NCBI GenBank assembly: GCA_951406725.2 | Contig: OX597838.1 | Coordinates: 33,170,001 to 33,234,000 of the forward strand | Direction: 5' to 3' | Source of the DNA: Octopus vulgaris | Taxonomy: Eukaryota | Length of the DNA: 64,000 nucleotides | Shown here: positions 14,537-32,880 of the stretch, one piece after another | How the letters are laid out: each line of letters opens with the position of its first letter | Numbering within the stretch: position 1 is the stretch's first letter | Notes under the pieces: model-generated | Databases searched by the model: none | Told to the model about the DNA's origin: nothing | The model's input: the letters and a program-made list of their open reading frames with translations, nothing else | Position numbers and translations under genes: made by a program

Positions 14537-14572
14537 CTTTTACATTTCGAGCCTACGCTCTTCTACAGAAAG
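14537..14572 (-). ncRNA. Minimal hammerhead-like motif, A6U core variant (family P2), within PLE-like fragment about 14461-14630
   Basis: cuuu-CUGUAGA-A-GAGC guag GCUC-GAAA-UG-UA-aaag. Confidence 0.7.
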
Positions 14573-14747
14573 GAACACAGAAAGAAACAAGGAGAGAAAG
14601 AGGGAGAGAAAAAAATGTGTGTACTGGCTATATATATATATATATATATATATATATATATATATATATCTTTAAAAATGACAACAAAAGAATGGGACCT
14701 CGATATCAGGTAAATAGAGGATTATTTATATATGTATAGTTGTCATT

Positions 14748-14806
14748 ATAGTACTCGGAGTTTCGAATGTCAGAGCGAAGAGCTAAGATGCATTCCCGTC
14801 GGCTGT
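14748..14806 (-). ncRNA. Decayed type I hammerhead
   Basis: acag-CCGACGG-GAAUG...CAUUC-GAAA-CUCCGAG-UA-cuau; stems II/III intact, two core substitutions. Confidence 0.5.
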
Positions 14807-14946
14807 TAATGGCAATAGAGGTGTATTGCCATATATATATATATATATATATATATATATATATATAACGGAGTAAGCACATAAATGCGAAACAAGGTGA
14901 AAAAAATAGAAAAATAGTACTCGAATACCAAAGGTAGAGTAATATG

Positions 14947-15081
14947 CTTTATTGAAAAGCAGCAGAAATAGCACAAAAACTGCTACGTTCCCGTTCATCG
15001 AACAGGTTTTCTGTCTGGCGAACGGCAACGTGAAACTCTGAGTAACAGTTTTTGTGATATTTCTGCTGCTTTTCAGTAAAG
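14947..15081. repeat. Fold-back (inverted) duplication of a hammerhead-bearing element end
   Basis: Arms 14947-14985 and 15043-15081 are reverse complements (3 mismatches); homology continues into the ribozyme cores in the centre. Confidence 0.85.
15011..15048 (+). ncRNA. Type I hammerhead ribozyme, A6G mutant
   Basis: cugu-CUGGCGA-ACG gcaa CGU-GAAA-CUCUGAG-UA-acag. Confidence 0.7.
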
Positions 15082-15192
15082 TGTATATGTATATATATAT
15101 ATATATATATATATATATATATATATATATATATATGTATGTATGTATGCATGCATGTATGTGTATATATATATATATATATATATACATAC

Positions 15193-15280
15193 ATACTTTG
15201 ATACTTTGATACTTTGATACTTTGATAGGTTTCGGCCATTATTGGCCCAGGCCATGTCTAACTTAATAGCACCACCTGGT
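15193..15280 (-). mobile_element. 56-nt mini retro-element with (ATCAAAGT)n tail
   Basis: First 56 nt identical to 30524-30579; four tail repeats here. Confidence 0.8.
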
Positions 15281-15372
15281 GCATATAACGAAGAACAAAC
15301 ACAAGAAAAGAGCAACAATGCGAGGACGTAGTACATGTAAAGTATTAGCAGACGCTCAGGGAAAGAAAGATA

Positions 15373-15408
15373 GTTTAAGGTTTCGAGCAGACGCTCTTCT
15401 TCAGAAAC
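15373..15408 (-). ncRNA. Minimal type I hammerhead ribozyme (family P1), intact core
   Basis: guuu-CUGAAGA-A-GAGC gucu GCUC-GAAA-CC-UU-aaac. Confidence 0.75.
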
Positions 15409-15550
15409 AGAGGAAAGTCCAATAGAAAAGGCAGGCGAAGGAAAAAAATTGCCGATTCACATGTGGTTAAATTTTTTGATATATATTACATGTATGATAC
15501 ATATATAATATTGTGAAACACGGTTTTTGTCCTTGGGTATTTCCTAATTT

Positions 15551-15757
15551 TCTTACCTCATGAAAGTACGAAATATGGTTAATATTTCCTACAAACTTTG
15601 CATTCCTCAAACTTATCCCTGCTTGGGCAGCTAGAAGTAAACTGAATTGTTAAGCCTACGATCCTAGCATTTATACTGCCATTTATGTTGCCAGAATGTT
15701 CTAGAAATTCTTGAAAGTTTTAGAAACTTCTCGAAATTTTTAGAAATTCCGAGAATA
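15551..15757 (-). promoter_or_regulatory. Putative heat-shock-inducible Pol II promoter: HSE array, TATA, Inr, 87-nt first exon, splice donor
   Basis: nGAAn units with about 10-bp period at 15693-15757; TATAAA at 15675-15670; TCAGTT Inr at 15645-15640 (+1 = 15643, TATA at -32); GAG|GTAAGA donor at 15557/15556. Confidence 0.65.
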
Positions 15758-29029: not shown

Positions 29030-29318
29030 TGTTTGTTCCTTCTTGAGCCATGCCTAGATCATAAGGGCTGGTTTCTTGGTTTCATTGGCGTATACGTTCC
29101 CCATCTGGACGGGACGCCGGTCCGTCGCAGGTGAGCTGCTTGATGCAGAAGGAAAGAGTGAGAGAAAGTTGTGGCAAAAGAGTCGGCAGAAGTTCGACAT
29201 TATACCTTCCCGTGGAGCTTAGGTGTTTCACTCATAAACACACATATCGCCCGGTCTGAGATTCGAACCCGCGATCCCTCGCCTGCGGGGCCGCTGCTCT
29301 AACCACTAGACCATGTGT
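29030..29318 (-). mobile_element. SINE family C-related copy
   Basis: Minus strand TGGTCTAGTGGTTAGAGCAGCGG...GGTTCGAATCTC head; GCGACGGACCGGCGTCCCGTCCAG body. Confidence 0.8.
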
Positions 29319-29349
29319 TCTTTTACCTGTTTCTTATTATTACTTATTA

Positions 29350-30030
29350 TTCTTTTATTTGTTTCAATCATTTGACTACGGCCATGCTGGAGCACCACCT
29401 TAAGGGGTTTTAGTCGAACAAATCGACCCCAGGACTTATTCGTTGTAAGCCTAGTACTTATTCTATCGGTTCATTTTGCCGAACCGCTAAATTACGGGGA
29501 CATAAACACACCAACACTAATTTCCCTTGGTGGTGAGTGACACACACACACACACACACACATACACACTCGACGGGCTTCTTTCAGTTTCCGTCTACCA
29601 AATCCACTCACAAGCCTGTGGTCGGCCTTAAGGCTATATTAGAAGACACTTGTCCAAGATGTTATACACAGTGGGACTGAACCCAGAACCATGTGGTTGG
29701 GAAGCAAGTTACTTACCACACAGACACGCCTGCGCTTTGCGTGTGTGTGTGTGTGTGTGTGTATGTGTGTGTGTGCGTGTGTGTGTTGTGTGTATGTTTC
29801 TGTTTCTCCCCTACCGCTTGACAACCGACATTGGCTTTTATTTACGATGCCATAACTTAGCGGCTCGACAAAACGCAAAAAAGTAATCGATAGAATGAGT
29901 AACTGGCTTAAAAAGTAAAATAAGTACTGGGGGCGGAGGGGTTGACTCGTTCGACTCAAGAAAAAAAAAAAAGACCTTTCAAGGCGGTGCCCCAGCATGG
30001 CCGTAGTCCGATGACTGATAGAAATAAACA
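29350..30030. mobile_element. SINE B (minus, 29350-29733) abutting a SINE B 3' half (plus, about 29740-30030)
   Basis: Homology to family consensus on opposite strands. Confidence 0.85.
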
Positions 30031-30523
30031 GATTAAGAGGAAGATAGAAAGCTGACGTGATGTTAGTTGTTTGTTGTTCTTGTTGTTGCTGTTGTTCGGG
30101 GTCCTAAATCGAGCAAAGACCGACCCCGATCGAGCAAAACCTCACGATCCAGACCCAGAGGTAGCATTCCAGGCATGACCAACCCTGCCGTTTTAACCGC
30201 TAGGCAAGAAGATTACATCAGCTGATGTGACCGTTTTTTAATTTTTTTTTAATTGTTATTGTTTGTTATTGTTTTTTTTTTTTTGTGTGTGTTTTTTTTG
30301 CGACTTCTTGTTCTTTTGTTTCTTGAAATCATGTTTTGTACGAATATTCCGGTCAGGATGTTTCTGTTATTTACTTTGCCAGGTAGCGACCATCCCCTCG
30401 TTGGCACGTGCGATGTGGAGCGCCCACACTCACACACACACACACACACACACACACACATGTATGTATGTGTGAATACATCCATATATATATATATACC
30501 AGGTGGTATATATATATATATAT

Positions 30524-30595
30524 ACCAGGTGGTGCTATTAAGTTAGACATGGCCTGGGCCAATAATGGCCGAAACCTATGAAAGTATCAAAGTAT
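30524..30595 (+). mobile_element. 56-nt mini retro-element with ATCAAAGT-type tail, in (TA)n
   Basis: Identical to the reverse complement of 15225-15280. Confidence 0.8.
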
Positions 30596-30883
30596 ATATA
30601 TATATATATATATATATATATATATAAACACATATACACATATACATATACACACACATACACAGACACATATATACACGCACATGTGTGTGTGTGTGTG
30701 TATATATAAATGTATGTATGTATAAGGCATATGTGTGTGTGTGTGTGTGTGTCTGTGTGTGAGTGTGCTGTTTGTGTATGTGGGAATGGGTAGGTAGGTG
30801 TGTAGATGAAGGTGACACTGGAGGCGGCGACAGCGGCAACGGCGGCGCTGATGGAGCTGGTTAAATAAACACTGCGAGACAAG

Positions 30884-31210
30884 ATGATGTTCATGATGAT
30901 GATGATGACGACGACGATGATGTTGATATTGATGATGATGATGATGACAATGCGGATGATGATGATGATGATGATGATGATGATGACAATGCGGATGATG
31001 ATGATGATGATGATGATGATGATGACAATGCGGATGATGATGATGATGATGATGATGACAATGCGGATGATGATGATGATGATGATGATGATGATGATGA
31101 TGACAATGCGGATGATGATGATGATGATGATGATGACAATGCGGATGATGATGATGATGATGATGATGACAATGCGGATGATGATGATGATGATGAGGAC
31201 GACGATGACT
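30884..31210. repeat. (GAT)n tract punctuated seven times by GACAATGCG
   Basis: direct reading; higher-order minisatellite of variable unit length. Confidence 0.95.
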
Positions 31211-31414
31211 TTGTATGAAGAAAGGGAAAAAGGTGGTGGCGGTGGTGGCGGCGATGGTGGTGGTGGCGGCTTTGGCGGTGGTGGTGGCGGTGGCGCTAAT
31301 GCCCTGTTGCATGTGATGATGTTTGTTGTTATAAGGTCAAGAGTGATGGCGACGGAGACACTGCGGGGGAGTGGGGTGTGAAGCTGTAAGATATATATAT
31401 CCGATGATGGCTTA

Positions 31415-31763
31415 ACTGGAGCACCGCCTTTAGTCGAGCAAATCCACCCCGGGACTTATTGTTTGTAAGCCCAGTACTTATTCTATCGCTAAGTAACGGG
31501 GACATAAACACACCAGCATCGGTTGTCAAGCAATGCTAGGGGGACAAACACAGACACACAAACACACACATGCATATATATATATATATACATATATACG
31601 ACGGGCTTCTTTCAGTTTCCGTCTACCAAATCCACTCACAAGGCTTTGGTCGGCCCGAGGCTATAGCAGAAGACACATGCCCAAGGTGCCACGCAGTGGG
31701 ACTGAAGCCGGAACCATGTGGTTGGTAAGCAAGTTACTTACCACACAGCCACTCCTGCGCCTC
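31415..31763 (-). mobile_element. SINE family B
   Basis: Homology to 2496-2892; a further partial copy at 31895-32060. Confidence 0.88.
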
Positions 31764-32844
31764 CAACATATATATATATATATATATATATATATATATA
31801 TATATATATATATATATATATATATATATATATATATATATGTATGTATGTATGTATATACATATATATACTTATATATGTATATATATATATTCTTTTA
31901 TTTGTTTCAGTCATTTGACTGCGGCATGCTGGAGCACCGCATTTTAGTCGAACAAATCGCCTATGACTTATTTTATCGGTTCTCTTGCCGAACCGCTAAG
32001 TGACGGGGGGGGGACATAAGCACACGACCAGCATCGGTCGTCAAGCGATGGCGAGAGGACAAACACACACACACACACACGCATATATACATATATATAT
32101 ATATATAAATATATTTACATACAATGACATGGGTGGCGTTAATAACGATGATGATGATGACGGTGGTGGTAGTGGTGGTGGTGGTGGTGGTGATGATGAT
32201 GATGATAATGATGATGAGATAACATTTACTGACAGCGATGTATGCGAGGGATGTTTTGGATTATTACACAACATTAGTTGTCGTAATAATTGAGGGTGGT
32301 GGTGGTGGTGGTGGTGGTGGTGGTGGTGGTAGTGGTGGTGGTAGTTATGGTAGTGGTGGTGGTGGTGGTGCCGTTGGTGGCGTTGGTGCTGGTATTTGAT
32401 GGCGGAAAGCAAAACAGATGCTATGCATTTTACTTAAATAGGAGTGGAATAGTTAATTACATTTTCTAAGTAGGACAGATTCAGCGTGTTTTGGAGGACC
32501 AGACCCTGAGACAGGGTAGGGCACATAACTTAACTCTACTTATTTTACACACACACACACACACACACACACACACACACACACACACACAAACGTGGCT
32601 CTCCGTCGGTTACGACGACGTGCGTTCCAGCTGATCCGAATCAACGTAAACAGCCTGGCCACTTTAACTACAAAATGGCTTAAGAACTACATCAATTGGG
32701 TATAAACTGGTTGTCCTAGACGTGTGCTCCATATCATCCACCACTGGTAGGAAGCTCATTAATACAGGGTGGTTCAAAAGTCAAAAGGTGTTTATAGTTC
32801 ATTTATGCAGTTTTAAATTTACAATAACTTAGCAGCACGTTTTC

Positions 32845-32880
32845 CCTTCTGTGGAAGAGCGTAGGCTCGAAATGTTAAAG
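32845..32880 (+). ncRNA. Minimal hammerhead-like motif, A6U variant (family P2), in fragment about 32843-32970
   Basis: ccuu-CUGUGGA-A-GAGC guag GCUC-GAAA-UG-UU-aaag. Confidence 0.62.

Follow-up and report, generated by a model that had tools for sequence, protein, structure and literature searches.

Four dispersed hammerhead motifs in a 64,000-nucleotide (nt) stretch of the Octopus vulgaris genome (OX597838.1, 33,170,001-33,234,000; hereafter the window, to which all feature coordinates are relative) lie in 5'-truncated ends of an autonomous Penelope-like element (PLE), a retroelement encoding a reverse transcriptase (RT), a cysteine linker and a GIY-YIG endonuclease (EN). The motif is the minimal hammerhead of its pseudo-long terminal repeat (pLTR), and all four copies carry U at position 6 of the core. 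In our judgement the chances are about even that this is a minimal type I hammerhead whose activity, by analogy with other variants, is slowed but not dead, a probably protein-assisted ribozyme for which cutting would require that the two terminal repeats form a dimer in cis.

The four pLTR ends are found at 14446..14630, 23391..23617 and 28751..28895 on the minus strand and at 32839..32981 on the plus strand. The first is inserted in (TA)n, and its hammerhead, counted from C3 to H17, occupies 14568-14541 with the core CUGUAGA and U6 at 14565. The second, of the subfamily adjoining the youngest one (93% to the youngest), carries CUGUUGA at 23535-23508 with U6 at 23532 and the cut site GUA. The third and fourth, both of a G7 subfamily, read CUGUGGA at 28887-28860 (U6 at 28884) and at 32849-32876 (U6 at 32852). 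A preliminary description of this DNA had noted U6 in all four motifs and A, U, G and G at N7, and the window reads as it said. Its coordinates do point to motifs, although three of its starts mark the plus-strand end of motifs on the minus strand.

In the U6 motif, a stem I of 4-5 bp is followed by CUGUNGA, one additional A and a stem II of 4 bp that contains G10.1-C11.1; GAAA, the palindrome ACGU and the cut site, GUA or GUU, complete it. It thus has the features of the minimal type I hammerheads of PLEs (stems I and II, a base between 9 and 10.1, G10.1-C11.1, a palindromic 15.2-16.2 and a UH site) and departs from the consensus hammerhead core, CUGANGA, in its otherwise invariant A6. Across 11 natural copies, 95.5% of 88 cells in stems I and II are paired, a level reached by 0 of 500 shuffles, although kinship of the rows inflates this statistic. 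In the same copies a C-G to G-C swap in stem I separates the U6 lineage from a sister lineage. The stems, GAAA and UH site are largely retained, as had been proposed, except that the copy at 28856 (28751..28895) has one stem II mismatch. The ACGU palindrome is gone from the copies at 14537 and 32845 (14446..14630 and 32839..32981), where it has become AUGU by CpG decay.

The identity of the parent element, which goes beyond the preliminary account, was obtained by walking upstream from long copies, which led to an RT and a GIY-YIG endonuclease, and a protein search of the genome returned dozens of equal-score loci with long open frames. When 20 of these were fetched, YIDD was in frame in every one, the frame ran into the GIY-YIG motif in 19, and frames measured 1,032-1,214 codons between stops; the CUGUUGA motif stood at the end of all 20 loci and a second, upstream motif was present in 16. 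Pfam recognised RVT_1 above its cut-off (E 1.7e-7) and GIY-YIG below it (E 0.007). The unit of 4,478 nt is arranged as a partial tandem, its copies are mutually 97-99% identical, and the element ends 109 nt past the cut site; a second hammerhead was found on neither strand of the unit. One open reading frame (ORF) holding the RT followed by GIY-YIG, a partial tandem forming pLTRs, and 5'-truncated solo copies are the organisation of EN-containing (EN+) PLEs. Among 60 loci picked by their RT (the 20 above and 40 more), 31 carry an upstream partial copy made up of 398-1,468 nt and the 109-nt end; the upstream motif reads CUGUUG in 31 of 31, and U6 is kept in 61 of 62 downstream matches. The truncated copies in the window thus derive from the ends of an autonomous element whose very recent multiplication took place with U6 motifs alone.

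The linker CSRPRCRTC (CX4CxxC) between RT and EN, together with a Cys pair inside the GIY-YIG core, matches the CX2-5CxxC linker and CCHH-type EN motif of the Neptune clade. The same linker also occurs in Nematis and Naiad (PMC8557442); the domain order excludes Naiad. On these motifs the element is probably of Neptune type, and its (TA)n targets also fit. A non-LTR retrozyme or a non-autonomous short interspersed element (SINE) was considered and rejected: retrozymes are short head-to-tail units without coding capacity, and the long copies here run into the RT-EN frame. Two old copies share 65-66% identity with the youngest in the endonuclease region, decay included. In all 31 loci with an upstream partial copy (L182-L200, L315-L349) the end of that copy falls between -398 and -1,468 nt relative to the cut site, with none from -398 to -10 and none beyond -1,468, whereas many solo copies end at -86 to -291; a second pass with strand displacement might account for this range. 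At L048 (G000:C3:3193908-3196931), L061 and L277/L278, U6 ends form head-to-head inverted pairs, the usual inverted insertion of Penelope.

Genome-wide counts were made as exact 24-mer matches in the 2.8 Gb genome from which the window comes, and gave 19,249 for U6 and 267 for A6, with 0 for a reversed control. All four letters are common at N7. Of 100 copies listed out of 398 in the oldest subfamily, 87 have U at position 6, 8 have C, 4 have A and 1 has G; in the youngest, 2,618 exact 61-mers with U6 compare with 16 copies that have another letter there, C in 11, G in 4 and A in 1. These numbers bear out two earlier proposals: that independent decay does not account for the shared U6, and that the master carried U6 and amplified with it (U6 prevails in both the oldest and the youngest subfamilies). 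A genome-wide A6 consensus, named earlier as a refuting result, is contradicted by them. Random decay of four copies is ruled out by the 24-mer and subfamily counts alike. Judged from its composition, the non-U class is a spectrum of post-insertion decay in which A6 copies look scattered, with no revertant lineage having spread. With diverged copies included, the family probably numbers several tens of thousands. Five look-alike A6 copies hinted at an A6 ancestor subfamily sharing this stem II, but the subfamily to which they belong is 87% U6. Two or three strongly diverged A6 copies (cluster 11) may represent an older relative. The oldest subfamily lies 10% from its consensus. If the octopus substitution rate of 0.0036 per million years (PMC13282606) applies, the oldest subfamily would be about 30 million years old and the youngest less than about 2 million.

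Whether this core is maintained was examined by clustering copies on their flanks with the motif masked. Seven subfamily consensuses were used, two of nine clusters (3'-disrupted copies and a deletion variant) being dropped; the flanks of the oldest and youngest differ by 0.33, the maximum among the seven. The flanks have accumulated 65 changes over 47 of 110 columns (0.59 changes per column) as against 2 changed columns of 36 in the hammerhead (Fisher p 1.3e-5). The two changed hammerhead columns are N7 (3 changes) and H17 (2, A/U), which are the positions that a working hammerhead leaves free. C3, G5, G8, A9, G12-A14, A15.1 and U16.1 show zero changes across the seven consensuses. By this measure, selection evidently acts on the U6-bearing fold. 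A fifth stem I pair (U-A) has been gained in the two youngest U6 subfamilies. Contigs under three other organism labels that align over the motif have variation listed at N7 and H17 and none at position 6, but the listing is incomplete and no weight is placed on it.

This pattern bears on an alternative that is possible, though we hold it somewhat doubtful, namely that the U6 motif does not cut at all and that its fold or sequence is kept as a protein binding, positioning or transcription signal, the tandems arising by template jumping on uncut RNA. Were that so, drift would be expected at G8, G12, C3 or from H17 to G; none occurred despite the rate in the flanks, and only N7 and H17 moved. 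Furthermore, the changes that did become fixed, at position 6 and, in the sister lineage, U4C, fall where natural variants with residual activity have been reported (PMC3088659). As between two of the readings put forward earlier, a functional core variant or a recognition signal only, the conservation pattern leans towards the former, in a weakened form.

A second line of evidence comes from the two repeats of the 31 loci with an upstream copy. They differ by 0.23% within a locus as against 1.1% between loci; lineage-marking sites are concordant between repeats in 47 cases and discordant in 4, and 6 locus-private changes are found in both repeats, with sites on each side of the cut site. The two repeats thus appear to have been copied from one molecule, as predicted by the cut-and-circularise model (PMC4209133). 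In folding calculations, a double hammerhead formed by a U6-U6 homodimer has a computed energy of -13.9 to -15.9 kcal/mol. U6 is predicted to let the monomer form an inactive rod in which U4-U7 pairs with A14-G16.2, with a probability of 0.97 in U7, 0.80 in A7, 0.36 in C7 and 0.10 in G7 forms, compared with 0.02-0.11 in natural A6 copies; the G5-C15.2 pair has a probability of 0.97 with U6U7 versus 0.08 in one natural A6 copy. Sisters are predicted to fold a similar rod in another register, so that the rod is not unique to U6. The shifted register UUGAAGA was discarded as an alternative core, as it has no stem II and is present only in U7 subfamilies.

Taken together, these data suggest the following scheme. 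A6U would have been fixed early in the lineage of the element and, by analogy with A6C and published core mutants, we infer that it lowers the rate. Cutting would take place only in a cis dimer of two repeats, aided by the element's own protein; for U7 subfamilies the prediction is that U6 pairs with A15.1, holding the monomer in an inactive rod. Most RNA would stay uncut, or be cut and then rejoined, which would suit reverse transcription because the RT, which starts about 109 nt downstream of the cut site, has to traverse that site. Now and then, cutting and joining would yield a unit-length circle, and both repeats would consequently be copies of one template. Published work is consistent with several of these steps: a natural A6C variant cleaves slowly and in a metal-sensitive manner (PMC3088659, PMC7151607), PLE motifs have been described as weak and protein-assisted (PMC4209133, PMC11167929), and the hammerhead of the anole PLE cuts only with protein (PMC11167929). 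A more elaborate version, which we regard as unlikely, is that A6U acts as a gated switch: the U6-A15.1 pair would lock the monomer off, the element's own RT-EN protein would open it, and both repeats would on rare occasions be cut and ligated to yield a unit-length circle templating insertions of more than unit length.

The sister lineage offered another route to cleavage, in which U6 RNA is cut in trans by canonical sisters through the ACGU palindrome, as the preliminary description had considered. The palindrome is common to the sisters, which are abundant (13,189 exact genome matches of a sister 23-mer). In the window, sister ends lie at 7262..7432 (minus; core CCGACGA at 7413-7387), 15289..15424 (minus; an older end with canonical CUGAAGA at 15404-15377 and a decayed palindrome), 23151..23370 (plus; canonical CUGACGA at 23236-23262) and 36739..36902 (plus; canonical CUGACGA at 36764-36790). 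The sister family had been said to keep A6, and it does, but the copy at 7383 (7262..7432) is non-canonical owing to U4C, a change present in 75 of 100 listed copies, this one included. At 23151-23617 a sister end and a U6 end stand tail to tail across one (TA)n tract; sisters sometimes lie next to U6 copies in this way, but (TA)n targets common to both lineages account for such adjacency. A double hammerhead requires the strand that cuts to form both stem III and stem I with its partner RNA. A sister x U6 heterodimer has a stem I of 3 bp (GUUU against AAAG) and -4.6 to +2.2 kcal/mol, far from the energies of the U6 homodimer given above; the dimer model of the minimal hammerhead is that of PMC4209133. 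Sister copies also lie further from their consensus (4.8% for C4 copies, which are slightly younger, and 6.2% for U4 copies) than the last U6 wave (about 0-1%). With most listed sisters U4C, this pairing poor and the sisters older than the last U6 wave, trans cleavage is disfavoured and we consider it very improbable. An autonomous partner for the sisters was not found, long upstream homology being absent from the 42 copies to which this search was confined. L231 and L260 represent a young sister sub-lineage, 0.6% apart, with U4C and, in stem I, a U-U mismatch (GUC then AUAC).

Several points weigh against a slowed but active ribozyme. Reverse transcription of cut RNA should leave a concentration of 5' ends at the cut site. 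Among the 87 ends that could be scored in the youngest subfamily, however, 14 belong to cut-compatible classes versus 10.9 expected under uniform truncation into (TA)n (a tally by hand of 100 copies listed out of 178, 13 being dropped for internal indels or duplications), and 0 of the 60 RT-picked long elements start at the cut site. The weight of this negative is reduced by the behaviour of an unrelated repeat family with a canonical minimal hammerhead (CUGAUGA; 60909..60945, minus), tried as a control, in which about 3 of 100 rows start at +1 amid a mass of indel-bearing whole copies, so that it gives no usable comparison, and by the anole element, whose canonical motif cuts with protein yet which likewise shows no RNA ends at the site (PMC11167929). 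Repeat concordance, for its part, is predicted equally by a template jump within the same molecule without cleavage, and the inactive rod is weak or absent in the G7 and C7 subfamilies. In a mutational scan of another hammerhead, changes in CUGA gave low activity with no rescue except by a C3-G8 swap (PMC9901934), and catalytic mutants of the anole element inserted unimpaired in vitro (PMC11167929). The spread of U4C in a second lineage suggests a relaxed need for fast cutting. Most of these observations suit a non-cutting signal, as do the extension of all 31 insertions with a whole upstream motif for 398-1,468 nt beyond it, the failure of A6 revertants ever to found a subfamily, and the Naiad PLEs, reported in PMC8557442 to thrive without canonical hammerheads.

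The conservation argument has its own weaknesses. Retention of U6 by itself is not significant, since at 0.59 changes per column a site stays unchanged about half the time by chance, and most sampled copies were picked by patterns containing the core, which inflates conservation; this bias does not affect the 60 RT-picked and 30 upstream-picked loci, which, however, cover two subfamilies. Loop II and the stem sequences are also invariant within the U6 lineage, so a constraint at the sequence level, on protein binding or on DNA, could explain the conservation. One form of this, in which a promoter element of the pLTR is conserved as DNA and the hammerhead is a relic, would agree with the location of PLE promoters in the pLTR (PMC6765202) as well as with loop II. 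The compensatory stem I change between lineages and the freedom exactly at N7 and H17 are signatures of an RNA fold and make it highly improbable. At the other extreme, U6 might be a fully efficient variant compensated by its context or by a metal such as Mn2+, in which A6C reaches near-normal rates (PMC7151607); U6 is retained in all seven subfamilies. No compensating core change was found, however, the chance retention of a single site applies here too, and from efficient cutting one would expect 5' ends at the cut site, or a split between the RT start and the ORF, for which there is no enrichment. We therefore think efficient cutting improbable.

Other features of the window complete the picture. 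A U6-element fragment at 25090..25271 (plus) ends at stem I, right before the core, so that no hammerhead remains. An Rfam scan of the window returned no hammerhead family among the best 150 of 334 matches, which were microsatellite noise. A further hammerhead-like motif, CUGAUGA...GAAA, occurs as a single copy in the window at about 5670-5694 (minus). At 63117-63476 there is a near-perfect long inverted repeat forming a hairpin of about 220 bp with arms running further, which resembles a miniature inverted-repeat transposable element or an inverted duplication. A very abundant SINE-like family is present at 2685-2887, 23632-23867, 28531-29000, 31564-31757, 60502-60712 and elsewhere.

The closest known systems are the minimal hammerheads of metazoan PLEs, for example Neptune of Acropora digitifera (Cervera and De la Peña, 2014, PMC4209133), which likewise reside in the pLTR, occur mostly in solo truncated copies and need a dimer, and which also have a short stem I, an extra base between A9 and G10.1, G10.1-C11.1 and a palindromic ACGU replacing stem III. 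The octopus motif differs in U6, which is fixed across tens of thousands of copies as well as in the intact elements. The core covariation reported for minimal hammerheads is U3-A8, and the descriptor-based search of that study would miss U6 (PMC4209133). Neptune-clade EN+ PLEs (Craig et al., 2021, PMC8557442) share the RT, the CX4CxxC linker, GIY-YIG with an internal Cys pair, partial tandems and (TA)n targets; here the hammerhead core is non-canonical and the likeness to the clade is motif-based. The Bcep176 A6C hammerhead (Perreault, 2011, PMC3088659; Naghdi, 2020, PMC7151607) is likewise a natural position-6 change with the rest of the core intact, and has low but real, metal-dependent activity. 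It has C rather than U and is a single phage ribozyme with full stems, in contrast to the dimer-dependent motif fixed across a retroelement lineage here. In PAc, a Poseidon element of Anolis (Frangieh, 2024, PMC11167929), the RT start is internal and downstream of the pLTR hammerhead, targets are AT-rich and no ends were seen at the cut site; it differs in its canonical core, in cutting with protein and in belonging to the Penelope/Poseidon clade. A6C and U4C are known, whereas no natural A6U was found in the literature searched, figure-only and supplementary data of which could contain one.

The role of hammerheads in PLEs is a standing question (PMC8557442, PMC11167929). An intact, recently multiplying element with a core-mutant motif in both repeats, together with natural A6 copies and a U4C lineage, offers a natural test of whether such a motif must cut, must cut slowly or need only fold. 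It also means that descriptor searches requiring CUGANGA miss whole high-copy families. Were the gated switch to prove true, this would be the first natural ribozyme lineage in which a position-6 mutant has thrived over tens of millions of years, and the octopus would provide a live element with which to test the circle model of Penelope.

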